A stretch of DNA of 64,000 nt, taken from contig DASQPH010000033.1 of assembly GCA_035644055.1 (NCBI GenBank), positions 3,308-67,307 of the forward strand. The letters are read 5' to 3'. Each line of letters opens with the position of its first letter. Position 1 is the stretch's first letter. Below the pieces are notes generated by a model that worked only from the letters and a program-made list of their open reading frames with translations, searched no databases and was not told the origin of the DNA. Both the position numbers and the translations under genes were made by a program. This DNA is from Chthoniobacterales bacterium (lineage in GTDB: Bacteria; Verrucomicrobiota; Verrucomicrobiia; Chthoniobacterales; UBA10450). Of this stretch, positions 3,380 through 52,383 are shown piece after piece.

Positions 3380-3452
3380 CGTCCCGCAGATATCATACGA
3401 ACGCGGCGATCATAAGTCTTCGCGCTCCGTGGTGGAGGAAGGGTCAATTCGT

Positions 3453-30461: not shown

Positions 30462-33400
30462 TTGGGCCGCACGCTCGTGCTTCTCAGCGCGGCATGGCTG
30501 TTCATTCCCGCGCCTCGCGTAAGCGGCGACACCTGCACCACGCCACCCGGCGGCATGGTGAGCTGGTGGCCGGGCGATGGCGATGCGACCGATATTCAAA
30601 GCGGCAACAATGGCACGCTGCAAGGCAGTGTCCCATTCGCACCCGGCGAAGTAGATCAGGCATTCAGCTTCAATGGCAATCCAGCGAATTATGTTTCGGT
30701 GCCAAACAGTGCGTCCCTCGAACTTACAACGTTCACCATCGATGCCTGGATATACCCAACCACCGATGCGCCGGTAGCTCAATGGATCCTTGATAAAGGG
30801 CCTTCCAGTGGGGACGCAAATTATGCGTTATCTCTCAGTAAATTTCCTGACGGCAATCACGCTGAAATTGATTTCGACGACGCAAGCATTGGTCATCAAT
30901 TCGTTGATTCGATCGGCCCGATTCCTCTGAACACCTGGACCCATGTTACCGGGACCTACGATGGCACGACACTAAAGCTTTATGTCAACGGCATCCTCGA
31001 CAACTCAGAGATGTTTAGTACCACACCGGCTACGACGGGTCAGCCAGTCACGATTGGACTGAGAGGTACTAGCCAGTATCCATTTAATGGTCTGATCGAT
31101 GAAGTAGAAGTGTTCGATCACGCCCTCACTGATGGGCAAGTTCTAACGATCTACAACGCGGGCAGCGCGGGCAAGTGTAAGCCGCCGCCAAGGGTCGTGA
31201 CGAAGACCGCCGATACTGATGACGGCGTGTGCGACTCCGACTGCTCGCTGCGTGAAGCAATCGCGGTAGCGCAGGCTGTTCCTGGCGCGGACACGATTAA
31301 TTTCAACATACCGACAAGCGATCCGGGCTATGACTCGGGCACGGGAGTTTATACGATCGTCGAGAACAGTTACCTTGCCATTCAAAGCGACGTTACAATC
31401 AACGGTCTCGGTGCGAATGTTCTGACGGTTAAGCGCGCTGATGGAGCGCCCAACCTGTCCGTCTTTATAATTTATCCCGGGACCGTCGTGTCGATCTCTG
31501 GCATGACCATCACCAACGGCAATTACGTCGGCGGTCTCGGCGGCGGAATCTACAACTTCGGCTCGACGACGGTCTCGAACTGCGTCATCACCGGCAATAG
31601 CGTCGGCAGCAGCGGTTATGGCGGTGGTATCTTCAATCACGCGGCAAACAGCAGCGATGCCAGCCTTACCCTGATCGAAAGCACGGTCAGCAACAACACC
31701 GCTATCTACGGCGGCGGCGTAGGCAACCTCGCCAATGATGGCAGGACGGCAACCCTGACAATCATCAGGAGCACGGTCAGCGGCAATACGACGCCCGGTG
31801 GTGGTGGCGGCGGCATCGTTAACATTATTAACAGCGGCAGCAATGGGACTTTGACCATCACTAACAGCACCGTCAGCGGGAATAGCTCTGAATACGGCGG
31901 AGGAATTTTTAGTGTCGGGGGCACGTCGATCTTCACCAATGTCACTGTGACCAACAACCGCGCCGACCTGGACAACGACGGCATCGGTGATGGGGGCGGT
32001 CTCTATAATGGCAGCGTCGGCGGCATCACGCTGGAAAACATAATAGTGGCGCTTAATTACAAAGGTGTCGGCTCTTCGGCGACCGCCGATGATATCTACG
32101 GCGGCACTCTTGAGGCCGCAAGCTCCTATAACCTGATCGGCACCGGTGGAGACGGGGGACTCGTTGACGGGGTGAACAACAACCACGTCGGCGTCGCTAA
32201 TCCCGGCCTCGGAGCGCTCCAAAACAACGGCGGGCCGACTCAAACACATGCCTTAATCGGAGGTAGTCTCGCGATTGACCAGGGCAACAGTTTCTCGCTC
32301 GCGACAGACCAGCGCGGGGCCGGCTTTAGTCGGCCCGTTGATCTCGACGACGCGACCTACCCGAACGCTTCGGACGCCGCGGACATCGGCGCGTTCGAAT
32401 TGCAAACGCTGCCTCCGTCGCCCCTGCCTAACGCGCCCGACCTGCAAGCCGCGAGCGACACGGGAGACAGCGACACCGATAACATTACGGAAGACAACAC
32501 ACCGACATTCGACATCACCGGTGTCACATCCGGCACACTCATCGAGCTGGTGCGTAATGGCGTGCCGGTCGCCAGTGGCATAGCAACCGGAACGACAATT
32601 ACTCTTACCGACAACGGCCCGGCTCCGGATGGCACCCATTCCTACACAGCGCGGCAGACGGTGAATGGCGCGACGAGCGCGGACTCGCCTGCGCTTTCTG
32701 TGATGATTGACGCGCCTCCATCGGTGACGATCAACCAGGCGTCAAGCCAGGCTGATCCAACTAATAGCTCGCCGATCAATTTCACGGTGGTCTTCTCCGA
32801 AAACGTCACCGGTTTCAGCAACGGCGACGTCACCCTGTCGGGCACGGCTGGCGCAACGACGGCAACAGTTACCGGATCAGGCGCGACTTATAACGTGGCG
32901 GTTCGTGGGATGACGGACAACGGGACCGTCGTCGTGAGCATCCCGGCAGGGGCAGCGGAGGACACGACCGGTCACCCGAACACCGCCTCGACGAGCACGG
33001 ACAACGCGGTGACGTTTTTCGGCAGCGTCTTCACCTCGCTCGAGGTCAACTCGACAGCCGACTCCGATGATGGGCAATGCACAACCGATCCTGGAGGTTG
33101 CACGCTCAGAGAAGCGATCAACGCGGCCAACGCCGATCCGGGGGTCGACACGATTACGTTCGCTTCGGGGCTGACCGGCACGATCACGCTGGATACCGCG
33201 CTTCCTCCCCTGTCCGATATGACGATCATCGGGCCGGGAGTGTCGCAGCTGACCGTGCGGAGAAATAGCACCGCGGCGACGCGCTTCCGCATTTTCACGA
33301 TCACGAATAGCGCGTTGGTCTCAATCTCTGGGATGACAATCTCAGATGGTTACACCGCAGACGGCCAGTCCGGCCCCTTCCCTACGTTAGGCGACAATGG

Positions 33401-36400
33401 CGGCGGCATCTTAAATGGGAGCGGTGCGACGCTCAACCTTACGAACGTGGTCATTAAGGGAAATCGTACCGGTAATGGCGGCAGCATTAGCACCGGCACT
33501 AACATCACCAGCGCCAACGGCGGCAGTGGCGGCGGGATCTTCAACGAAGGCGGTGCGGTCCTTAACCTAACGAACGTCATTGTGAGCGATAACGTCGCCG
33601 GCAACGGCGGCGATGCTGGCGACGCGGCAAGCGTCAATGTTCATAGCGGCCCAGGCGGCAGCGCCGGCGCCATCTTCAACGGCAGCGGGGCGGCCCTGAG
33701 CCTGACAAATGTGACGGTGACCAATAACACCGCTGGTAACGGCGGCAACGCCGCCGGTGGTAACGCGTTTGCCGGTGCTGGAGGCGACGGCGGCGGCATT
33801 CTCAATTCCGCCATGCTGACGACCTGCACCAACAGCACGTTTAGCGGGAACCGAGCCGGCAATGGCGGCAACGTCAGCGGCGGCACTAATGTCTTCGGCG
33901 GGAGGGGCGGTTTCGGCGGAGCCATCGCCGTCTTTTTCACCAGCGACCCGTCCAACCTAACGAGTGTGACCATAAGCGGTAACAGAGCCGGCAACGGCGG
34001 GACTGCTTCAGGCAGCAACGCCTTTCCTGGCGGCGGTGGCGTTGGAGGCGGGATCCTTGGCGGTGGCACCTTTACCATCACCAACAGTACGGTGACTAAT
34101 AACACCCCCGGCGCAGGCGGCAACGGCGGCGGCATATATAGCCCCGGCGGTACCGGCCCAATCTTGCGTAACACGATTGTCGCCGGGAACCACGCCGTCA
34201 GCGGCGGCATCGGTCCCGACCTCATCGGTCCTTTTGACTCACAAGGCTACAACCTAATCGGCAATAACTCTGGCGCTACGATCACGCCCAATACCGGCGA
34301 TCAAATCGGCACCTCAGGATCTCCTATTAACCCGCTTCTCGGCCCACTGGCCAATAACGGCGGTCCCACGCAAACCCACGCGCTTCTGCCGGCGAGTCCT
34401 GCCGTCGATAAAGGCGACAGCAGCGGCTCGGCGATAGACCAGCGCGGACAACCGCGGCCGTTTGACCTTTCCAACATAGCTAATGCTTCCGGCGATGGGA
34501 GCGACATCGGTGCCGTGGAAGACACAGCAGTGCAGTTCAGCGCGACCACAAATAGTGTGAACGAGAATGCCGGTAATGCCACCATCACTTTGCAGCGGCT
34601 AGGCAATCCAATCGGGCCGGTGACTGCGAAAGTCACTATCACCGACGTCACCGCCAGCTCGGCCGACTATGTTTTCGCGTCGGGTGTTCTCGATGCGGCG
34701 TTTAACGCGGGGGGCGCGGGAGCGAATAGTTCAGTGCTGGCGGTGGCGACACAACCCGACGGGAAGATTGTTATCGGTGGCACCTTCACTAGTTATAATG
34801 GGGATGTCGCCGCCAACGATTACATCATTCGGCTCAATACCGATGGCTCGCGCGACACCACCTTTAATTCCGGCGGCGCCGGAGCAGATGGGCAGGTCGT
34901 GGCGGTGGCGCTGCAACCTGATGGCAAGATCGTCATCGGCGGAAACTTCACCAAATACAACGGGGAGGCAGCCGCCAACGATTACATCATGCGGCTCAAT
35001 GCCGATGGCTCGCGTGACACCACCTTTAATCCCGGCGGCGCAGGAGCAAATGGTCAAGTAGCGGCGGTGGCGATACAGACCGACGGCAAGATTGTCATCG
35101 GTGGCTACTCGGCCAGCTACAATGGTAACACTGTGTCTAGCTACATCACGCGGCTTAACGCCGACGGAACCCCAGACGCGACCTTTAATCCAGGAAGCGC
35201 AGGAGCGGACAATTTTGTCTATACGGTGGCGATACAGACCGACGGAAAGATCCTTATCGGAGGCGAATTCACCAGTTACAACGGCGACTCCGCCGCCAGC
35301 GATTACGTTATGCGGCTTAACGTCGACGGAACACGCGATACCACCTTCAACTCCGGTGGCGCGGGACCAAATGGCTTCGTCGGGGCGACGGCGGTGCAAC
35401 CCGATGGAAAGATTGTCATCGGCGGGAACTTCACCAGCTACAACGGCACTGGAGCCGCGAACGATTACATCATGCGACTCAACGCCGACGGAAGTCGCGA
35501 CAACACCTTCAATGCGGGCGGCGTAGGAGCAGATGATGTAGTTGCCGGGGTGGCCGTGCAACCGGACGGAAAGATCGTTATGGGTGGCTACTTCACTGTT
35601 TACAACGGCGACCCAGATGCGAGCGATAATGTTATGCGGCTCAATTCTGACGGAACGCCTGACACTACCTTCAATGCGGGCGGGGCCGGAACCAATGCTA
35701 GTGTGAACGCGATAACGATGCAGGGCGACGGGAAAATCGTCGGCGGCGGCTATTTCACCAGTTACAATGGCAATACGGCAGCGAGCGATTACATTATACG
35801 GCTCGACAGCGACCTCTTTGTCACCTGGCCGGCCGGTGATGGCACGGACAAGACTATTCTGCTTCCGATCGTGAACGACATGCTGCATGAAGCAGACGAA
35901 ACTCTCACTCTCACGCTCGTTCCGCTCGTTGGGGCCGCAACCACCGGCGAGATTGCCCCTCAAACGCTGACCATCGTCGATAACGACAACACTGCGCCGG
36001 TCGCGACTAATCAAGCGGTCAGCACGAATGAAGACACGGCGAAGAATATCACACTAACAGGGTCAGATGCCGACAACGACCCGATCACCTTTTCGGTTGT
36101 TAGCAGTCCGAGCCATGGCGCCTTAAGCGGGACGGCCCCGAACCTTACTTACACGCCGGCCTCCGACTACAACGGCGCCGATAGCTTTACCTTTAAAGTC
36201 AATGACGGGCGAGTTGACTCGACCGCCGCTACCGTTTCGATCACGGTTAATGCGGTAAATGATCCCCCGACTGCTAATGCTCAGTCGGTCTCGACAAACG
36301 AAGATACGGCTAAGAGTATCACGTTGACCGGCAGCGACAAAGAAACGCCGTCTGGCAGCCTGACCTTTGCTATTACGGCGACGCCCGCTCACGGCATACT

Positions 36401-38063: not shown

Positions 38064-38086
38064 GATTTCACTGGGATTCTCGAACT

Positions 38087-38151: not shown

Positions 38152-38190
38152 GCGTGATTCGACATTTCAACGCCGAGAGAATTCGGGGTT

Positions 38191-44100: not shown

Positions 44101-47100
44101 GAGGTTTTCGATCACGCCCTCACCGATGCACAAGTTCTGGCCATCTACAGCGCGGGCACCGCGGGGAAGTGCCGCTCATGCGCGACGCCTCCTTTGAACA
44201 TGTTGGCCTGGTGGCCCGGCGACGGAAACGTCAGTGATCTTCAGGGAAATCACAACGGGACGCTGATGAACGGCGCGACCTTCGGAACCGGAGAAGTCTC
44301 TCAGGCGTTCAGTCTCGACGGAGTAGACGACTATGTTGACGTTGGCGACGTCGATCTGCCCGCCACCTTCACCATCGATGCCTGGATCGATCCGACGACG
44401 GTGACAAGTGATCCGTATGGCCATACTATTATCTCGAAGGCGGACAATACCTTTTCCAGCTACGACCTCGCCGTTGGCGATGGGTTCCTTTTCCTCAGCG
44501 TAGAAAACAGTATAGGAAACACGACGGTATATCGCTCGCTTGATGCGCTTGTTCCTGCCGGCGTCTGGTCGCATGTCGGCGTAACCTACGATGGAAACGC
44601 GGGGGCGGGCGAAAAGATAAAGTTTTACATCAACGGAATTACCGACACTGGGATACCTATAGGAGGCAATGATGCGGGCGGAACGCCACGAAACACCAGT
44701 GTTCCCGCTGCAATTGGCCGAGTCGGCAGCTTCTCGGGCGCGTATTTTTCCGGCCTGATTGACGAAGTCGAACTGTTTAGCCGAGTTCTCTCGGTTGTTG
44801 AGATTCAGGCGATCTACGATGCGGGGAGTTTCGGCAAGTGCAAGCCGCCGCCGGTGGTCCAATTTAACTCGGCAACCTACAGCGTTAATGAAGGAGATGG
44901 AAACGTAACGTTAACCGTAACGCGCACCGGTGACTCGTCCGGGACTTCCACGGTCCAGTATGCAACCGCGAATGGGAGTGCGACCGCGGGCTCGGATTAT
45001 ACGACTACGTCAGGCACGCTTACGTTTGCTCCCGGAGTCATCAGCCAGGACATCCTGGTGCCGATCACGGACGATTCCACCTACGAAGCGAGCGAGGACT
45101 TTACCGTAACGTTAAGTGCGCCTTCGACTGGGACGACGATTGGAACACCCGATAGCGCTACGGTTACGATAACCGACAACGATCCCGTTCCGACCATTTC
45201 CATCGACGATGTCGCGCACAATGAAGGGAATAGCGGCACGACCAGTTACGACTTTACGGTGAGCCTTTCAAACCCGTCGTCCCAGACCATCACGGTTGAG
45301 TACGCGACGGCGGACGACTCCGCCACGGCGCCTTCTGATTATACCGCGATTCCGACGACGACATTGACCTTCAATCCAGGCGACACGAGCAAGCCGGTTA
45401 CAGTCCTGGTTAACGGCGACACGGCGTTCGAGAACACGGAAACTTTCACCGTTCACCTCTCCGCCCCGACGAACGCAACCATTAGCGATGCCGACGGCAC
45501 CGGCACGATCACGAATGATGATACCGCACCAGTCTTTACGATCGACGACGTCACTCACAACGAAGGCAATGCCGGTACGACCATCTACACCTTCACGGTG
45601 ACCAAGACCGGCAGCACAGCGTTGAGTTCTTCCGTCCAATTCCAAACCCAGGACGGCACGGCCACAGTTGCGGATAACGATTACCAGGCAAATTCTGGCA
45701 CGCTCTTTTTCGGAGCGGGGGTGACTACGCGGCAGGTCACGGTCCTGGTCAACGGGGACACGAACGTGGAACCGACCGAGACCTTCACAGTTCACCTGTC
45801 GAATGAGGTCAATGCTTCCATCAGCGACGCGGATGGAACCGGAACGATCACTAACGATGACATCTTCTTCTCGATTAACGACGTGACGATGAACGAGGGC
45901 AACGCAGGCCAAGCCTCGTTTGTCTTCACCGTAACGAAGTCCGGCGACAACGGCTCGGGCTCGTCGGTGAATTTCGCCACTCAGGATGGCACCGCGAAGG
46001 TAGCGAATGGCGATTACCAGGCCAATAGCGGCACCCTGAACTTCGGGGCGACTGACACCACGATGCAGATCACGGTGCTGGTCAATGGCGACATCACGCC
46101 CGAGCCCGATGAAATCTTTACCGTTCACCTCTCCGGCGAAACCAACGCCACCATCTCCGACGCCGATGGCGTCGGGACGATCACCAACGATGATGGTCCG
46201 CCGCCGATTGTGTACGTCGATGACGATTGGGCCGCGGTGCCGACCGGCGACGATCCGGACGGCGCGGGACCGGCCACGAGCATGGGCTTCGACGCGTTCG
46301 CCACGATTACGGACGGCGTAAATGGTGTGGCCAATCCGGGAACGGTGATCGTTTATGCCGGCACGTATGCCGAGGGCAACAACACGATCGACCTTACTAA
46401 GTCGGTTACTATATCAGGACCCAACGCGGCCAACAGTCCGAACACAGGCCTACGCGTCGCCGAGGCGGTCGTCACCAGTCAGGGTACGAGTATAGTCCCG
46501 AACGGAGTATTCCGGCTCAACGTGCCGAACCTCACCGTGACGATAGAGGGGCTTAAGTTCGATGGCACCCCGGCGGCGATGAATGCCTACGCCGACCACG
46601 ACACCATCAGCCTGAAGAAGAACATATTTACCGCGTCACATGACCCGGGAATGTACTTCGAGACCCCGAACCTTACCATCGATGACAACCGTTTCGTAGA
46701 TATTGCGGCCCAGGGTGAAGACACGATCGCCGTAGACGTCAATGTCGGAGTCAACCGCGCTCCCGTCACCATCACTAACAACATCTGGTCCAATGTTGCC
46801 GTCGGCGCACTTAATCTGAGTCGGGTTTCCGGTACGATTTCAGGCAACCAATTCCTCAACGTCCAGTATTACGGTGTGTTGGTTGCGTACGATGCCGGCA
46901 ACCTGTCGATCACCGGCAATGTATTCGATGGCATCACCAATCCCGATCCAACAAACGTCCCGACGTGGGGTGCAGGAATTCGCTTCTACCAACCGGCCGT
47001 TACTGCGCCGGTTAATGTTGCGAGCAACAGGTTCACGAATTCCTACGTGGGCGTTGGCATTAGAGGCGTTCCGAATGATCCGGGGGCGGACATTACAGGC

Positions 47101-50100
47101 CAGCCTATTCACGTGAACTTCAACTCATTTATCAATAACACTCATGGGATAAGCGATGGCGCGGCTGGAGCGCTGGATGCGGAGAACAACTGGTGGGGAT
47201 GCAACTATGGGGCAGGCGCAACCGGCGCTGGATGCTCCATTACTACCAATGACGTGTTCAACAATGGCAGCGGCACGGTGGACGCCGATCCGTGGATCGT
47301 CCTGGGCGTGAGCGCAGCGCCGAATCCGATCGTTCCCGGCGATCAATCGACTGTCACGGCCGATATGACCCATAACTCGGCCAACGCGGTCCCGTCCGGA
47401 ACGATGTTTGTGCCGAACGTGGCCGTCGCGTTCGGCGCCACCGAAGGAACCATCGCGCCACCGACTGGAACCATCACCAATGGCCAGGCCACATCGACGT
47501 TTACCTCGACATCGAGCAATGACGGCACTGCTTCGGCCACGGTGGATAGCCAGACGACGAGCACGACGATCGACGTTACTCCCCCGTCCTTCTCGATCGA
47601 CGACGTTACCCAGGCTGAAACCAATTCCGGCCAGACTGCCTTTGTCTTCACGGTGACCAAAACGGGCGCCTCGGCGTTCGGCTCGTCCGTGGATTACCAG
47701 ACCCAGGACGGAACGGCCACCGTCGCGGACAACGACTATGTCGCCAAGAGCGGCACGCTGACCTTCGGACCGACCGACACCTCAATGACGGTCACGGTGC
47801 TCGTAAACGGCGACACCATTTTCGAAGCGAACGAGACCTTCACCGTTCATCTGAGCAACGCTTCGGACGCGACGATCGGCGACGCGGACGGCACGGGCAC
47901 GATCACGAATGACGACGACGCACCGCTCCTTACGATTGACGACGTGACGAAGGCGGAAGGCAACGCGGGAACAACTTCGTTCACCTTCACCGTCACCAAG
48001 ACCGGCGTCACCGAGGTAAACGCGACAGTCGATTACGCTACGGTCAATGGAACCGCGACGGCGCCCTCGGACTTCGCCGCGATTCCGACGACGAGTCTTA
48101 CCTTCCTGCCTAACGAGACCACGAAGCAGATAACCGTTTTAGTCAACGGCGATACGACACCGGAGGCGGACGAGACCTTTACCGTCCACCTAAGCAATCC
48201 GAACAACGCGAGCATTGCCGACGCCGACGGCACTGGCACGATCGTCAACGATGATACCGACGTCAGCGTTACGGTGTCATCGCCCTCGTCCGTCCCCGAA
48301 GACGGCGCCCAAAACCTCACCTATACCTTTACCCGTAATCCGCAGACGACCGGCGACATTACCGTTAACTTCAGCGTCGGAGGCACGGCCACCTTCGCCA
48401 CTGACTATACCCAAGCTGGCGCAGCCTCCTTTACTGCCACCAGCGGGACAGTGACGATCCCGGATGGTCAAACGACCGCGACGGTAACAATCGATCCGAC
48501 CGCGGACAATGTCGCCGAGCCGGACGAGACCGTTATCCTGACTGTGACATCTGGAACTGGATACAATGTTGGTACGCCAAGCGCGGCTACGGGCACGATC
48601 CTGAACGACGATACCAGTGTGACCGTCGCCGTCTCACCTGCTTCTGTGACTGAGGATGGCACAGGGAACCTTGTCTATACTTTCACTCGTAATCCGGTTT
48701 TCAGCGGACCGCTGACGATCGATTTCACTGTAGGCGGGACCGCCACCTATAACAGCGACTACACCGTCACCGGCGCGGATTCGTTCAGTTCCTCGAGCGG
48801 GACCGTAACCTTCGCGGACGGCAGTAACACCGCGACGGTGACCGTCGATCCGACTGCGGATACGATTTACGAATTGGATGAAACGGTAATCCTGACCGTG
48901 GGATCAGGGAGCAATTACAGTGCGGGCAGCCCGGGTGCTGCCACTGGCACCATAACCAATGATGACCCAGCGCCCACTTTGAACATAGGCGACCGGATCC
49001 TGGCTGAAGGTAGTAGCGGCGGTACGACCGCGTTTAACTTTACCGTCACCAAGACGGGTGCGACTCAGGAAACAGTAACCGTCGACTACAACACCCAGGA
49101 CGGAAGCACCAATCCCGCCACCGGCGGCGCGAGCTGCGGCGGCAATGTCGATTACATATCCAAATCGGGATCAGTAACCTTCCTGTCGAATGAGACGACC
49201 AAGACCGTCACGATAGATGTCTGCCAGGACACGACCGTTGAACCTAACGAGACGTTCTTTGTCGAACTGTCGAACCCCGTAAATGCCACTCTCTCCGACG
49301 GCGAAGGCCGCGGGACAATTCAGAACGACGACACTCCTCCGCCGCTGGTTCCGATCAACACCACCGATGACACCGATCCCACCGGCGTATGCACAGTGGC
49401 GCATTGCAGTCTGCGTAATGCCATAAACAGCGCCAACGCCAGCGCCGGCGCGGTCTCGATCAACTTTGGGATTCCGGCAAGCGACCCGCGGCACTTCTAT
49501 TATGCCGACGACCATGTCGCCGGACAGGTAAGTCAGGCAAATGTAACCGTCACGACGGCGGCGACTGATAATCTGATCCCTGACATCGACCCGGATTGGC
49601 CGCATAGCTGGTGGTCGATTCTGCCGACCTCGGAGTTAACAGCTATTAACCAGACAGTCACTATTGACGGCTACTCACAAACAGGCGCCGCGGCCAACAC
49701 CGTTACCGGCATGGATGCCGCGGTGCTCAAGATAGAAGTCGATGGCGCGAGCGCCGGAGTCAGCTCGAATGGCCTTACTGTCAACGGCCCAGGTTCGACG
49801 GCCCGCGGTCTGGTAATCAATCGGTTTACCGCCAACGGCATTAACCTGTCCGGCGGTAACACGACGATTGCGGGCAATTTCGTAGGGACCGACGTCAGTG
49901 GCACTCTGGACCTCGGTAACAGTGGTCACGGAGTGTCCACGAGCAGCTTCAGTGAATCGATCGGTGGTTCCACCCCGCAGGACATGAATCTCATTTCGGG
50001 TAACAACGGCGATGGTATCGTGCTGTCGAATAGCAACAGCGATCTAATTCTGGGGAACCTGGTTGGAACCAAATCCAATGGCACGACCGGGCTGGGTAAC

Positions 50101-52383
50101 ACTGGAAATGGCATGACCCTTTCGGGCGGCGGCACGGTGTTCAATACAATCGGGGGCACCCAGGCCGCGGACAGCAATGTCATCGCCTTCAACGGCGGTG
50201 ATGGTGTTCAGGTCGCAACGGCGGGAGTTTCCAATGGTATTCGTGGTAACTCGATCTTCTCCAATGGGACGACGAATTTGCATCTGGGCATCGACCTGGG
50301 CACCGACGGAGTTACACCGAACGACAATAAGGATGGCGACGGCGGCCCGAATGGTTTGCAGAATTTCCCGATTATTACTTCAGCATTGGCGACTGGATCC
50401 ACGAAGACGGTTACCGGAACGCTTAACTCTTCCGCCGGCGACCAGTTCGATATCGACTTCTACGCCAACGATTCCTGCGATGCTTCCGGCAACGGCGAAG
50501 GCCGGACTTACCTGGGTTCGATGACAACCATCGCGACAGATAGCAACGGCAATGTCTCGTTCACGTTCCATCCCGATGCCACTCATGCGTTGCTCATGAC
50601 CGTGGGCAAAGTCATTACCGCGACCTCTACCACAACCGGAGCTTTCTTCGACACCTCGGAGTTCTCCGCCTGCGTTGCGGTCGTGGACGGCTCGCCTGGA
50701 GCGGGCGACATCCAGTTTACTTCGGCGACCTACACGGTGGGTGAAGCTGGCGGAACAGCGGCCATTACCGTCGCGCGCGTGGGCGGCAGCAATGGCTCGG
50801 TAACCGCGAACTTCTCAACCAGCAATGGCACCGCGACAGCGCCTGGCGATTATACCGCTATTACGAACCAGCCTGTTACCTATGCAGACGGCGAGACCGG
50901 GACAAAGACGATCAATGTTACGATTAACAATGATTCCATCTACGAGAACAACGAGACGGTCAACCTAACCCTCGGTTCGACCCAGATTAATTTGCCAGAT
51001 AAAGGCGGCTCCGACTCTCCCGACCAAGCGGTAAATCCGCACGCAGCGGTTCTTACCATCGTGGATAACGACACGAAGCCGAGTTTCTCCATAGACGACG
51101 TGAGCCACAACGAGGGTAACAGCGGCACCACGGCCTATGTTTTCACCGTCACCAAGACCGGTGCGACGGAAGTAACTGCGAGTCTGAATTACTCGACCGT
51201 CAACGGCACCGCCACGGCGCCATCGGACTTTACCGCAATTCCATCTTCCAGTCTTATCTTCGCTCCGGGCGACGCCTCGAAGCAGGTTACTGTCTTAGTG
51301 AACGGCGACACGACGGTGGAACCTGACGAGACCTTCACTGTGCACTTGAGCAATGCCCTTAACGCCACTATTTCCGACGCCGACGGTACCGGGACTATCG
51401 TGAACGACGACGTTACGCCAAGTCCCACGCCAACAGCCACGGCAACAGCAACTGCGACGGCTACTCCAACCGCTACGGCTACGGCGACCGCGACCGCAAC
51501 CGCCACGGCTACAGCCACACCTACAGCGACCGCGACTGCCACGCCTACTGCTAGCGCCACTGCCACCGCAACGCCTACGGCCACGCCGACAGCTAGCCCG
51601 GCTCAAGCGCTAAACATTTCCACCAGACTCCGCGTTGACACCGGCGAAAACGCCATGATCGCCGGGTTCATCATTAACCCTGCGAACAGCAGCAACAAGG
51701 CAGTCGTGCTCCGCGGTATCGGCCCGTCGCTCTCATCCTTTGGTATTACCGGCGCCCTTCAGGACCCGGTAGTAGAGCTGCACGGGTCCAATGGTTCGTT
51801 AATTACGATGAACGACAACTGGAAGGACACGCAGCGCAGTCAGATCGAAGGCACGATCTTCCAACCGGCCGATGATCGTGAATCGGTGATTCTCGCGACC
51901 CTCAGTCCGGCAGCTTATACCGCCATTCTCAGTGGCAAGAACAACGGCGTCGGGATTGGTGTCATCGAGGTTTATGATAACAACCAGGCAGCCAACTCAC
52001 AGCTTGCCCAAATCAGCACCCGCGGTCTTGTCCAGGGAGGCAATAGCGTCATGATTGCAGGATTCATCTTGGGGGGCAGCCAGAATACCACTCACGTCGC
52101 GATCCGCGGTATCGGACCATCTTTGGGCCAGTTCGGAATCACCCGCCCGCTGCCTGATCCCACTCTCGAGCTACGTGACGCCAATGGCGTCCTGCTTATC
52201 GCAAACGATAACTGGCTGGACGATCCGGTGTCGGCCGCGCAGTTAACTGCGAACGGTCTCGCGCCTTCGAACACGAAAGAGTCCGGCATCTTCACGATCC
52301 TACCTGCGGGCCAATTTACGGCGATCCTCGCCGGGAAGAATGGCGACGGCATTGGCGTGGTCGAAGTCTATAATTTGAAGTAA
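38191..52383 (+). CDS. Giant secreted multidomain protein (4730 aa): N-terminal beta-sandwich, ExeM/NucH-type nuclease, beta-helix modules, propeller-like domain, two LamG, eleven Calx-beta, tandem C-terminal module
   Basis: Uninterrupted 14.2-kb ORF. The ORF track starts at TTG 38191; in-frame ATGs at 38224 and 38257 are alternative starts. From 38257 the signal peptide reads MRTKPLGLTTRVSGHFAISLFAAVLVAAIGSSAGTARG. Confidence 0.9.
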   Translation: MGRITRSLKPKMSPLKLRNAPAMRTKPLGLTTRVSGHFAISLFAAVLVAAIGSSAGTARGVQPNVSITTLPTTITQNFDTLPASGSATWTNDSTLPGWYHARTGNGTTIVANDGLSNGGNLYSYGTGTNTDRALGSVGSSNAAAGSFFWGILLTNNTGATITSLDISYTGEQWRNSAAAAQTVSFSYLIGTTLTGSLVEFQSAGVAVTQLNFTSPITGGTAAALNGNLAANRTAISFTIGSLNLADGQSIMLRWSDPDHTGSDHGLAIDDFSVTANGSGGPTPTASPTATATATPTATATATPAPIAVHDIQGSGATSPVVGQTVTTTGIVTGIRSNGFFIQTPDASADADPNTSEGIFVFTSSAPPAGAVVGNAVLVTGTVQEFIPSADPFSPAQTEISGSPVTTVQSTGNPLPAPHVITAAETQVNDLNNLEKYEGMRVQVNSLTVIAPTQGTISEANATSTSTGFFYGVVTSVARPFREPGIEVGDPVPTPYPSGPAPANVPRFDFNPERLRVGSCALTGSSCIDVTTGATLTNLIGPLDYGFRTYTIDVDPSSPPVVAGVVGFVSVPAQLASELTVSSFNLQRFFDTVEDPAVGDVVLTTTAFNNRLNKASLAIRNVLLMPDVIGVEEMENLTTLQAIANKVNADAGPGTTYQAFLAEGNDVGGIDVGFLVKTQANGLPRITVNSAIQYNKAETFIDPSSNSSALLNDRPPLVLRASVDQAGGGTYSFTVIANHLRSLSGVDSTTSAHTRVKRQKQAESLATLIHSFETVGDSNRVAPFDDNIVSVGDYNSFEFNDGYVDVVGTVLGTPAPADQVVQPSATISTDMTDLIQFAAAGQNYSYTFDGDAQALDHELANSSMVARLTRLAYGRMDADYPEAYRSDPNRPEKLSDHDPSVAYFDLTPAPTPTPTPTPTATATATATATATATATATATATATATSTPTATATSTPTATPPAGPIAVTNTNDSGAGSLRAAITAANLNPDADIIAFEASATGTINLQSALPTLSTDMTIQGLGANVVTVRRDTVPDYRIFTVNSGKTVTISGLTISNGRSYDGGGISNAGTLTVTNSTLSGNYTPSSCCFRGGNGAGIFNSGMLTITNSTLSDNHTSDGSTGSQEKAEAGDGGGIYNMGTLIVTDSTLSGNQTGIGGIWEFVGPFGFNFVGGDGGSGAGIFNFSGTVTVTHSTLNGNRCGRAGGPAGLGGGFGGSGAGVFNRSGSVTITNSTLSGNQAGCGSSSPAETSNGFGSAIDNRDLLIVTNSTLSGNYNLCDGVDERDRADTYGIYNGGTATFKNSIITNSGIYGNCANDNGAPFNGSGSNLEAAGGLGDACPGFTQVTSGQLNLGALGNNGGLTMTHALQPGSVAIDAGTDLTTLNVPLDNSTNTVVVIDATSIPGGIGFLVRIDNEQMSVTSKSTNTLTVVRGANGTTAAAHSAGAAVNAAFDQRGAGFPRLRDGNGDSTATVDVGAFEATGTAPSPTPTATATATATATPTATATATVSATATATATPVTSPTPTATPTATPFGQEILYGISNGLGEPAENLIYRIDPANGDLSNMVQVTLPGYTVGRVQSLVMRPSDGVLFAVVQTQSPDGPRRLVTINPTTGVCTDIGAFTEQIASLAFRASGTLYAASGTIIGPGLHPKSLFTINTTTAQETLLFALVNGDGGETIVFHPNGLLYHASGGTPGASPAIFESINVDTQAVTPINSDSVPECFAMGYSPSAGTLFGSDYNSDLYTVDITTGIRTFVGAMADQLPVSGMIAARNRGLAFAVTQVCSAPPGGMVSWWPADNTPADIEGHHDGTWTGTPVYAAGEVGQAFSFDGTTANYIVVPNNTALDLTQFTVDAWVYPTASPDAGFGTVIDKEFSTGGINYALFVGHDGTVEIDFNAGSHQFVDSAPGAAPQNTWTHIAGTYDGTTVKLYVNGVLNGSFVSNQTPTGGQDLYIGVRNAASLQGAFQGLIDEVEVFDHALTDAQVLAIYSAGTAGKCRSCATPPLNMLAWWPGDGNVSDLQGNHNGTLMNGATFGTGEVSQAFSLDGVDDYVDVGDVDLPATFTIDAWIDPTTVTSDPYGHTIISKADNTFSSYDLAVGDGFLFLSVENSIGNTTVYRSLDALVPAGVWSHVGVTYDGNAGAGEKIKFYINGITDTGIPIGGNDAGGTPRNTSVPAAIGRVGSFSGAYFSGLIDEVELFSRVLSVVEIQAIYDAGSFGKCKPPPVVQFNSATYSVNEGDGNVTLTVTRTGDSSGTSTVQYATANGSATAGSDYTTTSGTLTFAPGVISQDILVPITDDSTYEASEDFTVTLSAPSTGTTIGTPDSATVTITDNDPVPTISIDDVAHNEGNSGTTSYDFTVSLSNPSSQTITVEYATADDSATAPSDYTAIPTTTLTFNPGDTSKPVTVLVNGDTAFENTETFTVHLSAPTNATISDADGTGTITNDDTAPVFTIDDVTHNEGNAGTTIYTFTVTKTGSTALSSSVQFQTQDGTATVADNDYQANSGTLFFGAGVTTRQVTVLVNGDTNVEPTETFTVHLSNEVNASISDADGTGTITNDDIFFSINDVTMNEGNAGQASFVFTVTKSGDNGSGSSVNFATQDGTAKVANGDYQANSGTLNFGATDTTMQITVLVNGDITPEPDEIFTVHLSGETNATISDADGVGTITNDDGPPPIVYVDDDWAAVPTGDDPDGAGPATSMGFDAFATITDGVNGVANPGTVIVYAGTYAEGNNTIDLTKSVTISGPNAANSPNTGLRVAEAVVTSQGTSIVPNGVFRLNVPNLTVTIEGLKFDGTPAAMNAYADHDTISLKKNIFTASHDPGMYFETPNLTIDDNRFVDIAAQGEDTIAVDVNVGVNRAPVTITNNIWSNVAVGALNLSRVSGTISGNQFLNVQYYGVLVAYDAGNLSITGNVFDGITNPDPTNVPTWGAGIRFYQPAVTAPVNVASNRFTNSYVGVGIRGVPNDPGADITGQPIHVNFNSFINNTHGISDGAAGALDAENNWWGCNYGAGATGAGCSITTNDVFNNGSGTVDADPWIVLGVSAAPNPIVPGDQSTVTADMTHNSANAVPSGTMFVPNVAVAFGATEGTIAPPTGTITNGQATSTFTSTSSNDGTASATVDSQTTSTTIDVTPPSFSIDDVTQAETNSGQTAFVFTVTKTGASAFGSSVDYQTQDGTATVADNDYVAKSGTLTFGPTDTSMTVTVLVNGDTIFEANETFTVHLSNASDATIGDADGTGTITNDDDAPLLTIDDVTKAEGNAGTTSFTFTVTKTGVTEVNATVDYATVNGTATAPSDFAAIPTTSLTFLPNETTKQITVLVNGDTTPEADETFTVHLSNPNNASIADADGTGTIVNDDTDVSVTVSSPSSVPEDGAQNLTYTFTRNPQTTGDITVNFSVGGTATFATDYTQAGAASFTATSGTVTIPDGQTTATVTIDPTADNVAEPDETVILTVTSGTGYNVGTPSAATGTILNDDTSVTVAVSPASVTEDGTGNLVYTFTRNPVFSGPLTIDFTVGGTATYNSDYTVTGADSFSSSSGTVTFADGSNTATVTVDPTADTIYELDETVILTVGSGSNYSAGSPGAATGTITNDDPAPTLNIGDRILAEGSSGGTTAFNFTVTKTGATQETVTVDYNTQDGSTNPATGGASCGGNVDYISKSGSVTFLSNETTKTVTIDVCQDTTVEPNETFFVELSNPVNATLSDGEGRGTIQNDDTPPPLVPINTTDDTDPTGVCTVAHCSLRNAINSANASAGAVSINFGIPASDPRHFYYADDHVAGQVSQANVTVTTAATDNLIPDIDPDWPHSWWSILPTSELTAINQTVTIDGYSQTGAAANTVTGMDAAVLKIEVDGASAGVSSNGLTVNGPGSTARGLVINRFTANGINLSGGNTTIAGNFVGTDVSGTLDLGNSGHGVSTSSFSESIGGSTPQDMNLISGNNGDGIVLSNSNSDLILGNLVGTKSNGTTGLGNTGNGMTLSGGGTVFNTIGGTQAADSNVIAFNGGDGVQVATAGVSNGIRGNSIFSNGTTNLHLGIDLGTDGVTPNDNKDGDGGPNGLQNFPIITSALATGSTKTVTGTLNSSAGDQFDIDFYANDSCDASGNGEGRTYLGSMTTIATDSNGNVSFTFHPDATHALLMTVGKVITATSTTTGAFFDTSEFSACVAVVDGSPGAGDIQFTSATYTVGEAGGTAAITVARVGGSNGSVTANFSTSNGTATAPGDYTAITNQPVTYADGETGTKTINVTINNDSIYENNETVNLTLGSTQINLPDKGGSDSPDQAVNPHAAVLTIVDNDTKPSFSIDDVSHNEGNSGTTAYVFTVTKTGATEVTASLNYSTVNGTATAPSDFTAIPSSSLIFAPGDASKQVTVLVNGDTTVEPDETFTVHLSNALNATISDADGTGTIVNDDVTPSPTPTATATATATATPTATATATATATATATATPTATATATPTASATATATPTATPTASPAQALNISTRLRVDTGENAMIAGFIINPANSSNKAVVLRGIGPSLSSFGITGALQDPVVELHGSNGSLITMNDNWKDTQRSQIEGTIFQPADDRESVILATLSPAAYTAILSGKNNGVGIGVIEVYDNNQAANSQLAQISTRGLVQGGNSVMIAGFILGGSQNTTHVAIRGIGPSLGQFGITRPLPDPTLELRDANGVLLIANDNWLDDPVSAAQLTANGLAPSNTKESGIFTILPAGQFTAILAGKNGDGIGVVEVYNLK
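39031..39105 (+). repeat. Thr/Ala/Pro linker (PTPTASPTATATATPTATATATPAP)
   Basis: Direct translation. Confidence 0.85.
39106..40905 (+). other. ExeM/NucH-family extracellular nuclease-like region (OB-like head plus endonuclease/exonuclease/phosphatase fold)
   Basis: IAVHDIQGSGATSPVVGQTVTTTGIVTGIRSNGFFIQTPD...TSEGIFVF. EEP motifs in order: SFNLQRFF, VIGVEEMEN, VIANHLRS, VGDYNSFE, LDHELAN, LSDHDPSVAYFDL. Confidence 0.75.
40906..41079 (+). repeat. Thr/Ala/Pro linker (TPAPTPTPTPTPTATATATATATATATATATATATATSTPTATATSTPTATPPAGP)
   Basis: Direct translation. The antisense strand reads as a spurious VAVAVAV ORF (40893-41237). Confidence 0.9.
41080..42620 (+). other. Right-handed beta-helix module (SLRAAI variant of the CSLREA motif)
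   Basis: VTNTNDSGAGSLRAAITAANLNPDADIIAF, repeated TVTNSTLSGN turns, terminal HALQPGSVAIDAG ... DQRGAGFPR ... DVGAFE. Confidence 0.7.
42621..42777 (+). repeat. Thr/Ala/Pro linker
   Basis: GTAPSPTPTATATATATATPTATATATVSATATATATPVTSPTPTATPTATP. Confidence 0.9.
42778..43533 (+). other. Unassigned ~250-aa beta-rich (propeller-like) domain
   Basis: Recurrent strand-turn segments: LYGIS...LIYRIDPANGD, LFAVVQT...LVTINPTTG, LYAASG...LFTINTTT, LLYHASG, LFGSDYNSDLYTVDITTG. Confidence 0.4.
43534..44853 (+). other. Two tandem LamG / concanavalin-A-like lectin domains
   Basis: PPGGMVSWWPADN...GEVGQAFSFDG...FTVDAWVYP...WTHIAGTYDGTTVKLYVNG...GLIDEVEVFDHALT...GKC, then LAWWPGDGNVSD...GEVSQAFSLDG...FTIDAWIDP...GLIDEVELFSRVLS...GKCKPPP. 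Confidence 0.75.
44854..46194 (+). repeat. Calx-beta domain array A (4 units, ~112 aa each)
   Basis: ATYSVNEGDGNVTLTVTRTG...ATANGSATAGSDY...GTLTFAPG...ITDDSTYEASEDFTVTLS, followed by three units ending ETFTVHLS...ISDADG[TV]GTITNDD. Confidence 0.85.
46195..47577 (+). other. Parallel beta-helix (PbH1-type) domain followed by an invasin-like Ig domain
   Basis: VYAGTYAEGNNTIDLTKSVTISG..., repeated ITNNIW/ISGNQF/ITGNVF/ASNRF turns, ENNWWGC, then VSAAPNPIVPGDQSTVTADMT...TNGQATSTFTSTS. Confidence 0.65.
47578..49332 (+). repeat. Calx-beta domain array B (5 units, ~117 aa each)
   Basis: Units begin FSIDDVTQAE, LTIDDVTKAEG, VSVTVSSPSSVPEDG, VTVAVSPASVTEDG and LNIGDRILAEG. Each has a D[YF] core and ends in G.I.NDD. 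Confidence 0.85.
49333..50694 (+). other. CSLRNA-motif right-handed beta-helix module 3
   Basis: DDTDPTGVCTVAHCSLRNAINSANAS...INFGIP, then GN.IG[GT] / GNGI turns, GIDLGTDGVTPNDNKDGDGGPNGLQNFP. Confidence 0.7.
50695..51411 (+). repeat. Calx-beta domain array C (2 units)
   Basis: IQFTSATYTVGEAGGTAAITVARVGG...TSNGTATAPGDY..., and FSIDDVSHNEGNSGTTAYVFTVTKTG...ETFTVHLSNALNATISDADGTGTIVNDD. Confidence 0.85.
51412..51600 (+). repeat. Thr/Ala/Pro linker (63 aa)
   Basis: VTPSPTPTATATATATATPTATATATATATATATATPTATATATPTASATATATPTATPTASP. Confidence 0.9.
51601..52380 (+). other. Tandem C-terminal module, copies D1 (51601-51984) and D2 (51985-52380)
   Basis: ALNISTRLRVDTGENAMIAGFII...VLRGIGPSL...PVVELHGSNG...NDNW...ESVIL...YTAILSG...GIGVIEVYDNN, then LAQISTRGLVQGGNSVMIAGFIL...AIRGIGPSL...PTLELRDANG...NDNW...ESGIF...FTAILAG...GIGVVEVYNLK-stop. 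Confidence 0.85.

Follow-up and report, generated by a model that had tools for sequence, protein, structure and literature searches.

Two adjacent giant genes of a soil Chthoniobacterales bacterium encode predicted multi-domain exoproteins with a common C-terminal tandem module

Introduction

Tandem jelly rolls of ~120 aa at the C-terminal end of a secreted enzyme are known from the PPC/ColG s3a-s3b type of module. The ColG collagen-binding domain (CBD) and the C-terminal domains of Tk-SP and KP-43 serve in binding or stabilisation and do not act as export tags. In the Bacteroidota, one C-terminal beta-sandwich-type domain, the T9SS C-terminal domain, is common to unrelated secreted proteins. 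Adhesins of the LapA, SiiE and BapA types are large and acidic, and they carry arrays of Calx, cadherin and Ig-like domains. The Chthoniobacterales are among the most abundant soil bacteria. At the level of single proteins, a CSLREA-domain protein has been placed among the candidate T2SS substrates in Acinetobacter (PMC9245377), and DVUA0089 is listed in the sigma54/DVUA0057 exopolysaccharide-biofilm regulon of D. vulgaris (PMC4641369). Giant genes have repeatedly been reported for PVC bacteria.

Here we describe two adjacent giant genes, P1 (30462..38063) and P2 (38191..52383), from a soil Chthoniobacterales (Verrucomicrobiota) bacterium. They lie in an analysed stretch of 64,000 nt, hereafter called the window, and code for 2533 and 4730 aa, respectively, in open reading frames with TTG starts. 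All features discussed below are located on the + strand, and L-numbers (L002, L013, L019 etc.) denote loci of relatives' genomes that were compared with the window. The ORF coordinates bear out a first-pass annotation of this DNA, which had described two intact, co-oriented giant ORFs with a gap of 127 nt occupying about one third of the window; the two genes make up 34% of it. Both end in a C-terminal tandem module, for which we have coined the name CTM. It resembles the tandem jelly rolls of ColG, but the CTMs of P1 and P2 lack a significant sequence match to the PPC/ColG type, and the module is present on thousands of proteins with diverse passengers that are not mainly peptidases. The T9SS C-terminal domain is comparable by analogy only, and it differs in that the CTM is tandem and ~3 times larger. 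We consider it probable that P1 and P2 are intact genes for Sec-exported, multi-domain exoproteins of the CTM family that were assembled by joining passengers. PVC bacteria often have giant exoproteins of modular build, so the two genes are by themselves no surprise, and they represent a clear yet not unusual example of domain shuffling.

Domain architecture of P1 and P2

P1 starts with a predicted Sec signal peptide (30462..30527, aa 1-22) that contains a hydrophobic 12-mer at aa 4-15 (Kyte-Doolittle 2.3). This is followed by a LamG domain (30531..31196), a CSLREA/choice-of-anchor-Q beta-helix (31194..32411) that extends from a CSLREA head (CSLREAI at aa 261) to a choice_anch_Q ending, a Big_13/Big_12 region, and a second such helix (33042..34520) with a CTLREA head (CTLREAI at aa 880) and the same type of ending. 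The remaining part contains a Calx-beta domain with a nested delta-60 (DUF5122) propeller (34530..35987), three tandem-95/cadherin-like repeats and an Ig-like domain (35988..37181), a Thr/Ala/Pro linker (37182..37286) whose coding DNA consists of imperfect ACN/GCN repeats, and the CTM (37287..38060, aa 2276-2533), which ends in ...VEAYNLK-stop. This arrangement of modules is so far found in this lineage only.

Nearly all of the domains named in the first-pass annotation were reproduced by annotation with Pfam and NCBIfam. The LamG domain of P1 scores 106.8 bits with PF13385 (1 domain; gathering threshold 27.6), and the two helices pass the cut-off of 25 bits with both TIGR04214 (CSLREA_Nterm; 63.2 bits, 2 stretches) and NF041518 (choice-of-anchor Q; 127.5 bits, 2 stretches). 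The modules listed as private to P1 are likewise borne out, the delta-60 propeller by TIGR02608 (237.8 bits, 6 stretches; cut-off 76.5) and PF17164 (249.9 bits, 7 stretches), and the cadherin-like repeats by NF012211 (136 bits, 3 stretches; cut-off 90), with PF17963, PF17892 and PF17803 in the same region. The Calx-beta domain is divided into aa 1357-1408 and 1785-1842 by the propeller (aa 1409-1784, nt 34686-35813). As encoded, it scores 18.3 bits with PF03160, below the gathering threshold of 27. With the propeller spliced out, the alignment covers profile positions 8-118 of 119 and the score rises to 30.4 bits.

In P2, a predicted signal peptide is followed by an N-terminal domain (38368..39060, aa 60-290; best Pfam match no better than E 0.22), an ExeM/NucH-like nuclease (39148..40905), a first beta-helix (41077..42660) and a DUF6923/DUF4394 propeller-like domain (42778..43530; E 8.7e-11 and 7.8e-10), with linkers on both sides of the nuclease and between the helix and the propeller-like domain. 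Next are two LamG domains (43531..44859), Calx-beta units 1-4 (44842..46200), and a PbH1-type right-handed beta-helix with an Ig-like domain (46198..47571; PF13229, E 5e-11; PF05048, E 2e-5). A core whose module order is matched in relatives (47575..51426) consists of five Calx units, a CSLRNA-headed beta-helix (49336-50775, aa 3716-4195; CSLRNAI at aa 3739) and another two Calx units. The protein ends with a terminal Thr/Ala/Pro linker (51427..51600) and the CTM (51601..52380, aa 4471-4730).

The LamG domains of P2 score 165.5 bits with PF13385 (2 domains; gathering threshold 27.6), and the nuclease, the PbH1 helix and the propeller-like domain, all described earlier as private to P2, are reproduced by Pfam, NCBIfam and PDB matches. 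Eleven Calx-beta units had been counted; our own HMM also finds 11, and PF03160 recognises 10 stretches (522.5 bits; gathering threshold 27). Like the CSLREA/choice-of-anchor Q proteins, P1 contains two complete modules and P2 one. The P2 copy differs in that its head, GSLRAAI (aa 975), has no cysteine, and in that its choice_anch_Q ending holds a 67-aa insertion (nt ~42313-42534), which gives a HAL-to-DQRG spacing of 87 aa versus 20 aa in P1; it passes NF041518 at 34.1 bits (cut-off 25). The second head in P2 (aa 3723-3749) scores 20.5 bits with TIGR04214, below the cut-off of 25, and leads into a different helix.

The nuclease module of P2 (aa 328-904) aligns over the full length of the ExeM/NucH model NF033681 (positions 2-545 of 546), with a score of 128.2 bits that is below the 300-bit cut-off. 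Three motifs of the endonuclease/exonuclease/phosphatase fold, SFNLQRF, ANHL and GDYNSFEF, are aligned with PDB 9sf8 (E 1.2e-10), and an SDHDP motif, outside these three, is also present. Judged from these similarities, the module appears to resemble a functional ExeM/NucH member, though NF033681 does not class it as one, and it differs from the known enzymes in being one module within a 4,730-aa protein.

The C-terminal tandem module

The CTM is composed of two tandem PPC/collagen-binding-like jelly rolls of ~128 aa each, in total ~257 aa. The CTMs of P1 and P2 both show the family pattern of paired ISTR...GPSL...NDNW...ES...G-x-G-x-V-E-x-Y units at the C-terminus, and the conserved end reads ...G-[IV]-G-[LV]-[VI]-E-[VIA]-Y-x-[LV]-x. 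An exhaustive profile search identified 18,064 clusters (50% identity) that carry the module at E<=1e-3, and the best 78 genomic loci were all from Verrucomicrobiota/Chthoniobacterales genomes. As many as 63 different Pfam passenger families were found on 57 family members. P1 and P2 belong to this very large and probably lineage-specific family, which is defined by its common CTM, usually attached via a Thr/Ala/Pro linker, and not by its variable passengers.

That the terminal module defines a very large family had been overlooked in the first-pass annotation, as had its presence in two more genes, so that the window contains four CTM genes. The third (373..2478, 701 aa) encodes an NF038122-family metalloprotease with an fn3-like region and a CTM, and the fourth (19790..23365, 1191 aa) a BNR-like region, an fn3-like region and a CTM. 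The CTM units of these two genes match NF038127, the 'DVUA0089 family', at 50.1 and 37.6 bits, respectively (cut-off 29). This model differs from the CTM in being 150 positions long, and it thus covers one unit, not the tandem pair. It is matched above the cut-off by 11 of 57 family representatives, but the CTMs of P1 and P2 gave no match to it even at E<=1, and no Pfam or NCBIfam model matched them. Their homology to NF038127 is indirect only, via 48-50% identity to the paralogous copies in the 701-aa and 1191-aa genes. PF04151 (PPC) did not match the P1 and P2 CTMs either (gathering threshold 25.9 bits), and scored 16.6 and 21.5 bits, below the threshold, with the two divergent copies in the window. 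The CTM family (~18,000 clusters) is not modelled in Pfam-A and only partly covered by NCBIfam. Cluster look-ups of the family returned no informative names, and no description of the module was found in the literature on Chthoniobacterales, Udaeobacter, giant genes, choice-of-anchor, DVUA0089 and CSLREA. Its annotation would label thousands of 'hypothetical' proteins in soil metagenomes for the first time, and would indicate a testable retention or sorting mechanism.

Searches of the PDB with a single CTM sequence and with a profile gave chance-level matches only (Kelch, ricin-like lectin). Structure prediction gave a jelly roll of the PPC/CBD type (pLDDT 82-86). The best Foldseek match of the tandem model was ColG s3a-s3b (5iku; E 1.7e-10), and a single unit gave TM scores of 0.56-0.72 (1nqj, TMt 0.72; 5sv5, TMt 0.67; 3afg, TMq 0.63). 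The modelling thus suggests that the CTM has a jelly-roll fold like that of the ColG collagen-binding domain. Double-jelly-roll capsid proteins of viruses (PRD1 P3, PBCV-1) were matched with Foldseek TM values of ~0.2-0.3 and were judged to reflect a generic jelly-roll resemblance.

By analogy with sorting signals in other lineages, the CTM could be the tag of an undescribed Chthoniobacterales pathway for sorting, secretion or attachment rather than a plain binding domain, a reading that we regard as possible but unlikely. The module is nearly always located at the extreme C-terminus, where it has a conserved terminal motif, the stop codon being placed 0-5 codons past it in nearly all of 133 CTM ORFs, and thousands of proteins whose passengers are unrelated carry it. 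It is under more constraint than these passengers (dN/dS = 0.08-0.15) and appears to have been homogenised between the neighbouring 3' ends of P1 and P2, since the CTMs of P1 and P2 share 84% identity (unit 1, 77%; unit 2, 92%), but the P2 copy shares only 68% with the CTM of the positional ortholog of P2 in L019. Furthermore, passengers in the family are homologous to proteins that have sorting signals elsewhere, and hit NCBIfam models whose names refer to PEP-CTERM, GlyGly-CTERM, myxosortase-dependent and 'choice-of-anchor' proteins, which suggests that the CTM sits at the position of the C-terminal sorting or anchoring signal of other lineages. If the CTM were a pathway tag, it would have a job in the Chthoniobacterales like that of the T9SS C-terminal domains and PEP-CTERM, and the linker-bounded design would allow any passenger, even the multi-thousand-residue chains of P1 and P2, to be plugged onto it. 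However, no partner gene recurs beside the CTM genes among 868 clustered ORFs from 79 loci and the window, the clustering having returned just the synteny of the P1/P2 slot and generic kinases. In one subfamily, the module is internal and followed by a beta-helix (~6/137 CTM ORFs, in the L038 and L042 arrays), which means that a free C-terminus is not strictly required everywhere. The nearest folds, those of the ColG collagen-binding domain and of the Tk-SP and KP-43 protease C-terminal domains, also argue against a tag, and the known C-terminal sorting signals are, to our knowledge, much smaller than the tandem CTM. In the reading that we prefer, the CTM would be a common handle, which may bind the protein to a ligand on the cell surface or in the matrix, or retain it there, or aid its export.

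Shared modules and their relatives

P1 and P2 had been described as mosaic paralogs that are built from a shared module set. The set comes down to the LamG domains, the linkers, the C-terminal tail and a single type of beta-helix, and to nothing else; Calx-beta, which had also been named as a shared block, is present in both proteins, but in P1 only as the one copy that is split by the propeller. The LamG domains open with near-identical motifs, as noted earlier, PPGGMVSWWPGD at aa 28 of P1 and PPGGMVSWWPAD at aa 1785 in the first LamG domain of P2, and the two domains are 52-63% identical. Beta-helix 1 of P2 and the helices of P1 share 37-50% identity. The third beta-helix of P2, at aa 3716-4195, has only a CSLREA-like head of ~50 aa in common with the P1 helices and no choice_anch_Q ending. 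In the DNA comparison of the two genes, the CTM alone aligns well (79% over 927 nt).

Adjacency, co-orientation and the common LamG, beta-helix type, linkers and CTM would also be expected if one giant gene had been duplicated in tandem and the copies had diverged and lost domains, so that no shuffling was necessary, and relatives often have tandem arrays of CTM genes. This explanation is disfavoured, and we find it improbable. The synonymous divergence is very unequal, with dS values of 0.65-0.98 for the CTM, 1.4-2.2 for the beta-helices and at least 2.7, which is saturated, for LamG. This contrast shows that the shared modules have different ages. The modules also differ in order and in number, and counterparts in the partner protein exist for only ~54% of P1 and ~27% of P2. 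Moreover, the protein from other genomes that comes closest to P1 or P2 changes from block to block. The C-terminal 700 aa of P1 (aa 1833-2533) are closest to a protein from the non-syntenic locus L009 (58% identity). In L028, the P2 core is inherited as a single giant directly downstream of the kinase, and P1 is absent. Taken together with the changed gene context of the nuclease described below, these data support module shuffling rather than simple duplication, as the first-pass annotation had suggested, and the term "paralogs" is apt for the domains of P1 and P2 but not for the entire genes.

The slot that contains P1 and P2 is conserved in relatives, in the order PAS kinase / X / small ORF-AcrB-MFP-MarR-PMT-NusA-IF2. 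What fills it in relatives varies between a decayed remnant and single giants of ~3,000-3,500 aa, and the extremes across the set are a pseudogene remnant and coding sequence for 7,263 aa in total. The conserved small ORF (52444..52923, 159 aa), which is predicted to be secreted and follows the CTM gene or genes in the syntenic slot, did not match any protein-family model. The region of P2 from aa ~1996 to 4730 follows the module order of a 2,988-aa protein in L002, and aa 3094-4408 are 57-63% identical to blocks of the same order in the giants of L003, L025, L027 and L028, where the alignments begin between aa 3094 and 3377. Identity to the positional ortholog in L019 is 74% over aa 3793-4730. 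P2 probably consists of an inherited slot core (LamG, Calx arrays, beta-helices, Calx and CTM) and an added N-terminal part of ~1,800-2,000 aa, which would include the nuclease of ExeM/NucH type, predicted to be active. The conserved slot can be used to study how surfaces vary between strains of soil Verrucomicrobia, which are abundant and for the most part uncultured.

The nuclease is the only module for which a move between genes could be traced. Its homolog in L013 is a simple 1,297-aa protein with an LTD (lamin-tail-like) domain, the nuclease and a CTM, which is encoded elsewhere in the relative, and the N-terminal domain of P2 stands in place of the lamin-tail-like domain. The two nucleases are 90% identical in amino acid and 86% in nucleotide sequence, a divergence equal to that between the orthologous genes in the flanks (81-86% nt), and the CTMs of the two proteins are just ~66-67% identical. 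At both ends, the match stops inside the ACN/GCN repeats that code for the Thr/Ala/Pro linkers, where the joints of the traced move would be located. The comparison shows that the module has moved between gene contexts, either by fusion into P2 or by excision from it, and it has been caught in these two contexts at orthologous-gene divergence. Each type of passenger (nuclease, CSLREA helix, delta-60 propeller, tandem-95, Calx) is also known elsewhere as a simple protein of one or two passengers and the tail. We propose that the giants were assembled by joining such passengers, in which case P2 would provide a clean and dated example of passengers from simple proteins being joined at linker-coding repeats.

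Export and proposed function

Both proteins contain N-terminal hydrophobic, signal-like segments by a hydrophobicity criterion, and both are acidic (D+E 8-9% versus K+R 3%). They are most likely Sec-exported, Ca-binding exoproteins that are held or targeted via the CTM, and would be located at the cell surface. The passengers, that is, the lectin-like LamG domains, beta-helices, propellers, cadherin-like and Calx rods and the nuclease, may work extracellularly on polymers or surfaces.

P1 and P2 resemble adhesins of the LapA, SiiE and BapA types in that they are large and acidic and contain arrays of Calx-beta, cadherin-like and Ig-like domains, and they could in principle be cargo of one of the known routes, as a T1SS RTX adhesin, a T5SS autotransporter or a T9SS substrate. 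We consider this very improbable. No HemolysinCabind/RTX, autotransporter beta-barrel or Por_Secre_tail model was found in P1 or P2 in the Pfam and NCBIfam scans, nor Por_Secre_tail in the CTM, and the N-terminal signal-peptide-like segments are unlike what is seen in T1SS substrates. The C-terminal module also differs from those of the adhesins in being family-specific.

Integrity of the gene pair

The two genes encode repetitive proteins (11 Calx units, delta-60 blades, Thr/Ala/Pro linkers) and the nanopore-based relative L001 has a frameshift within a linker, but it is barely credible that P1 and P2 are artefacts of the assembly, either as chimeras or through repeat arrays that were collapsed or expanded, given a 99.9% match with SNPs only in three further data sources, full-length gene calls in one of these, and intact genes for ~3,000-3,500 aa of equal module order in relatives. 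The internal DNA repeat units of both genes are only 70-87% alike, which makes an assembly collapse unlikely.

The first-pass annotation had raised the possibility of frame-disrupting differences in independent assemblies, and none was found in the parts covered by these metagenome contigs. They were reached via neighbouring genes with ATG starts by exact look-up. The same type of look-up with P1 and the histidine kinase gave no match, and we suspect that ORFs starting with TTG were deposited with Leu as the first residue, or that the recorded calls have other start codons. For P2, the true start is more probably Met23 (38257), where the signal-peptide-like segment begins. No terminator was found in the intergenic regions between P1 and P2 and between P2 and the small ORF, which hints that the three may be co-transcribed. 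Contig k141_729047 of ENA ERZ27253148 matches the window at 16346-38589 and 42444-62932 with 99.9% identity. The differences amount to 2 SNPs for P1 and 3 for the part of P2 that it covers, and neither gene shows an indel. Its gene calls are 2528 and 4717 aa long, and for the positions 38590-42443 of the window, the independent support is the spanning gene call. Contigs from JGI 3300012929 and Logan SRR5882724 span 42965-52383 with no indels.

Two adjacent giant genes with intact, mosaic architectures

The genes P1 (30462..38063, plus strand, 2,533 aa) and P2 (38191..52383, plus strand, 4,730 aa) have the same orientation, are separated by 127 nt and cover 34% of the window, in agreement with the first-pass annotation, which had put them at about one third. 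Translations and scans with Pfam and NCBIfam recovered almost all of the domains named there, and a motif search found the quoted motifs where they had been placed. P1 starts with a signal-peptide-like N-terminus, followed by a LamG domain, a CSLREA-headed beta-helix with a choice-of-anchor-Q ending, Big_13/Big_12 domains, a second CSLREA/choice-of-anchor-Q helix, a Calx-beta domain, a delta-60 (DUF5122) propeller, three tandem-95/cadherin-like domains, an Ig-like domain, a Thr/Ala/Pro linker and the C-terminal tandem module (CTM), which consists of two jelly rolls of ~128 aa (units 1 and 2). P2 contains a putative signal peptide with a probable start at Met23, an N-terminal domain (aa 60-290; window 38368-39060) that matched no Pfam model, an ExeM/NucH-like nuclease, a CSLREA-type helix, a DUF6923/DUF4394 propeller-like domain, two LamG domains, eleven Calx-beta units in three blocks, a PbH1/NosD-type helix, a distinct helix with a CSLRNA head, a linker and the same CTM as P1.

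Two modules carry insertions. The single Calx-beta domain of P1 is split by the propeller (aa 1409-1784; window 34530-35987), in which Pfam recognized seven DUF5122 stretches. As encoded, the domain scores 18.3 bits, and the Pfam threshold is reached only after the propeller is removed and the halves are joined, which gives 30.4 bits over positions 8-118 of the 119-position model. This increase in score places the propeller in a loop of the Calx-beta domain. In the choice-of-anchor-Q ending of the first P2 beta-helix, an insertion of 67 aa (window 42313-42534) separates the HAL..AID.G and DQRG motifs, which are spaced by 87 aa, versus 20 aa in both copies in P1.

Independent assemblies contained no frame-disrupting differences, as expected if both ORFs are intact, as had been proposed. 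The contig k141_729047 (55.9 kb) of the ENA assembly ERZ27253148 corresponds to window 16346-38589 and 42444-62932 at 99.9%, with two SNPs in P1, three in the covered part of P2 and indels in neither gene. The two genes are called there as 2,528 and 4,717 aa, and window 38590-42443 is covered by the gene call alone. A contig from JGI 3300012929 and a Logan contig from SRR5882724 both span 42965-52383 with no indels. The internal DNA repeats of the two genes are only 70-87% alike. The GC skew is steadily negative over the giant genes (window 36000-52000), with the cumulative skew going from +0.14 to -0.43; we would guess at the codon composition of such Thr/Ala-rich genes as the cause, not at replication.

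Modules shared by P1 and P2 differ in divergence

P1 can be matched to P2 over about 54% of its length, and P2 to P1 over about 27%. In fragment-wise BLASTP comparisons, the LamG domain of P1 was 52-63% identical to the first and 33-50% identical to the second LamG domain of P2, the CSLREA/choice-of-anchor-Q helices were 37-50% identical, and units 1 and 2 of the CTM were 73-78% and 92-93% identical, respectively. The beta-helices had been listed among the shared modules, which holds for the CSLREA/choice-of-anchor-Q type, but the helix at aa 3716-4195 of P2 shares only its ~50-aa head with those of P1. At the DNA level, the CTM alone aligns well (79% over 927 nt). The dS values are 0.65-0.98 for the CTM and 1.4-2.2 for the helices, and are saturated for LamG (at least 2.7). 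Because dS differs so sharply between modules, a single whole-gene duplication cannot give this pattern.

The tails of the two genes seem to have evolved in concert. The CTMs of P1 and P2 are 84% identical (92% in unit 2), while that of P2 is just 68% identical to the CTM of its positional ortholog in L019, the locus from the closest species representative. Moreover, an ENA metagenome protein fragment (P0001) combines a unit 1 that matches the one of P1 at 95% identity with a unit 2 that matches the one of P2 at 93%; this apparent chimera suggests recombination between P1 and P2 tails in related strains. Together with CTM dN/dS values of 0.08-0.15, these comparisons suggest that the two neighbours have exchanged sequence at their 3' ends and are, in addition, under strong purifying selection.

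A conserved genomic slot with variable content

P1 and P2 are located in a slot between genes for MatE, a hydrolase, an M3 peptidase and a PAS hybrid kinase on one side, and a small ORF followed by AcrB, MFP, MarR, PMT, NusA and IF2 on the other. This order was identified, whole or in part, in eight loci of relatives (L001, L002, L016, L019, L025, L027, L028 and L054), several of which end at a contig edge or at the 10-kb flank limit. The content of the slot varies. In L001 (6702-10780), it is one ~1,360-aa reprolysin-like metalloprotease with a CTM; a frameshift inside its long Thr/Ala linker, seen in this nanopore assembly, may stem from faulty assembly or from genuine decay. L016 (9550-10708) contains a decayed, frameshifted Ig-linker-CTM remnant and nothing else, L054 contains four smaller CTM genes, and L002, L025, L027 and L028 contain one giant each, of 2,988-3,525 aa.

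Comparisons using HMMs built from the modules of P1 and P2 revealed a core of Calx(n)-CSLRNA helix-Calx(n)-CTM that is common to P2 and these four giants. The module order of P2 aa ~1996-4730 is that of the L002 giant, blocks within aa 3094-4408 are 57-63% identical to L003, L025, L027 and L028, and the last 941 aa are 74% identical to L019. The extra part of P2 is the N-terminal ~1,800-2,000 aa, comprising the N-terminal domain, the nuclease, a helix, DUF6923 and the first LamG domain, with Thr/Ala/Pro linkers between the first three of these. Among the loci compared, no other species carries P1 in the slot; the closest relative of its C-terminal 700 aa is a protein (58%) at a non-syntenic locus, L009.

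The nuclease of P2 has a close relative in L013, in a 1,297-aa protein with a lamin-tail-like domain, a nuclease and a CTM. This protein shares 90% identity with P2 aa 306-905, and its gene is 86.3% identical to window 39035-41063 over 2,035 nt, a divergence equal to that of its orthologous neighbours on the same contig, the M3 peptidase and kinase genes (81-86% nt). However, the lamin-tail-like domain is present where P2 has its aa 60-290 domain, the CTMs of the two proteins are just ~66-67% identical, and the L013 gene is located upstream of the M3 peptidase, outside the slot. Both ends of the match also fall inside linker-coding ACN/GCN repeats. The nuclease module has thus switched gene context after the two species split, either by fusion into P2 or by excision from it. 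The spread in dS, the slot comparison and this relocation all support the earlier suggestion of module shuffling rather than simple duplication.

An ORF of 159 aa with a predicted signal peptide (window 52444-52923) always follows the slot CTM gene or genes, in seven loci. It matched no family, is far better conserved than the CTM genes ahead of it and is identical in independent assemblies. It may be functionally linked to the giants.

The CTM represents a very large C-terminal domain family with almost no annotation

No Pfam-A model matched the CTM, with PPC found only below threshold in two divergent window copies, and a Pfam scan of 57 CTM family members identified no family common to all. 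The NCBIfam cut-off for NF038127 ("DVUA0089 family protein"), a named but uncharacterised family, was passed by two divergent window CTMs and by 11 of the 57 representatives but not by the CTM of P1. AlphaFold predicted two beta-jelly rolls (pLDDT 82 for the pair and 86 for one unit). The top Foldseek match of the pair was the tandem collagen-binding domains of ColG (5iku, E 1.7e-10), and the best matches of one unit included the C-terminal jelly roll of the Tk-SP subtilisin (3afg, TMq 0.63), ColG s3b (1nqj, TMt 0.72), the PPC domain of a Bacillus anthracis collagenase (5sv5, TMt 0.67) and the KP-43 protease. From these structural matches and domain scans, the CTM is predicted to be a divergent jelly-roll pair of the PPC/collagen-binding type, weakly tied to NF038127.

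A tblastn search showed that the CTM also ends an NF038122-family metalloprotease (373..2478, 701 aa) and a BNR-like protein (19790..23365, 1,191 aa), both with CTMs ~49% identical to that of P1, giving four CTM genes in 64 kb. A word-indexed search returned 5,584 matches, none of which had a name or a Pfam domain on the module. A profile search run exhaustively over 1.84 billion cluster representatives gave 18,064 matches at E<=1e-3, of which 8,967 had E<=1e-30; the matching region almost always ended at the last residue of the protein. Verrucomicrobiota account for all of the best 78 genomic loci, most of which come from Chthoniobacterales ("Spartobacteria") genomes in soil or peat assemblies, and one genome often supplies several. 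In nearly all of the 133 CTM ORFs in these loci, the stop codon is located 0-5 codons past the module. Tandem arrays of CTM genes are frequent, as in L014 with six in 21 kb. The only clear exceptions to the C-terminal position belong to a small subfamily. Its genes of ~1,160 aa form tandem arrays in L038 and L042 (for example L042 8585-12067) and place the CTM mid-protein, ahead of a CSLREA/choice-of-anchor-Q beta-helix.

The domains ahead of the CTM are highly variable, with 63 different Pfam families in 57 representatives, including propellers, He_PIG, DUF11, LamG, PKD and Calx. In NCBIfam, these domains matched models whose names refer to PEP-CTERM, GlyGly-CTERM, myxosortase-dependent or "choice-of-anchor" proteins, and by analogy the CTM takes the position that a C-terminal sorting or anchoring signal has in other lineages. 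A dedicated sorting pathway that recognizes the CTM is nevertheless unlikely, as no recurrent partner gene was found beside the CTM genes and the internal CTMs in L038 and L042 speak against a strict need for a free C-terminus. CTM proteins have a median length of ~750 aa, and P2 exceeds all ~286 others sampled. Every variable domain type in P1 and P2 is also present in relatives as a simple protein, such as nuclease-CTM, helix-CTM, propeller-CTM and propeller-tandem-95-CTM.

Predicted export and function

P1 and P2 each begin with a signal-peptide-like segment and contain acidic residues in large excess. They carry many Calx-beta and cadherin-like units, and the domain scans identified no cytoplasmic-type domains. 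The P2 nuclease has kept the motifs SFNLQRF, ANHL, GDYNSFEF and SDHDP, the first three of which align with 9sf8, a solved protein of the endonuclease/exonuclease/phosphatase fold. Neither RTX, autotransporter nor T9SS C-terminal domains were detected in the Pfam and NCBIfam scans. Based on these sequence features, P1 and P2 are probably Sec-exported and extracellular. The variable domains would bind or degrade polymers, and the CTM would be a common handle, keeping the protein at a ligand of the cell surface or matrix or directing it there. In kind, P1 and P2 represent a phenomenon well known from the literature, the giant modular exoproteins of PVC bacteria, to which they add a clear comparative record of mosaic origin. 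The conserved synteny beside the slot includes a glycosyltransferase of the PMT/PMT_2 family (window 57955-59388, minus strand), and, as pure speculation, the Thr/Ala/Pro linkers would make plausible targets for O-glycosylation.
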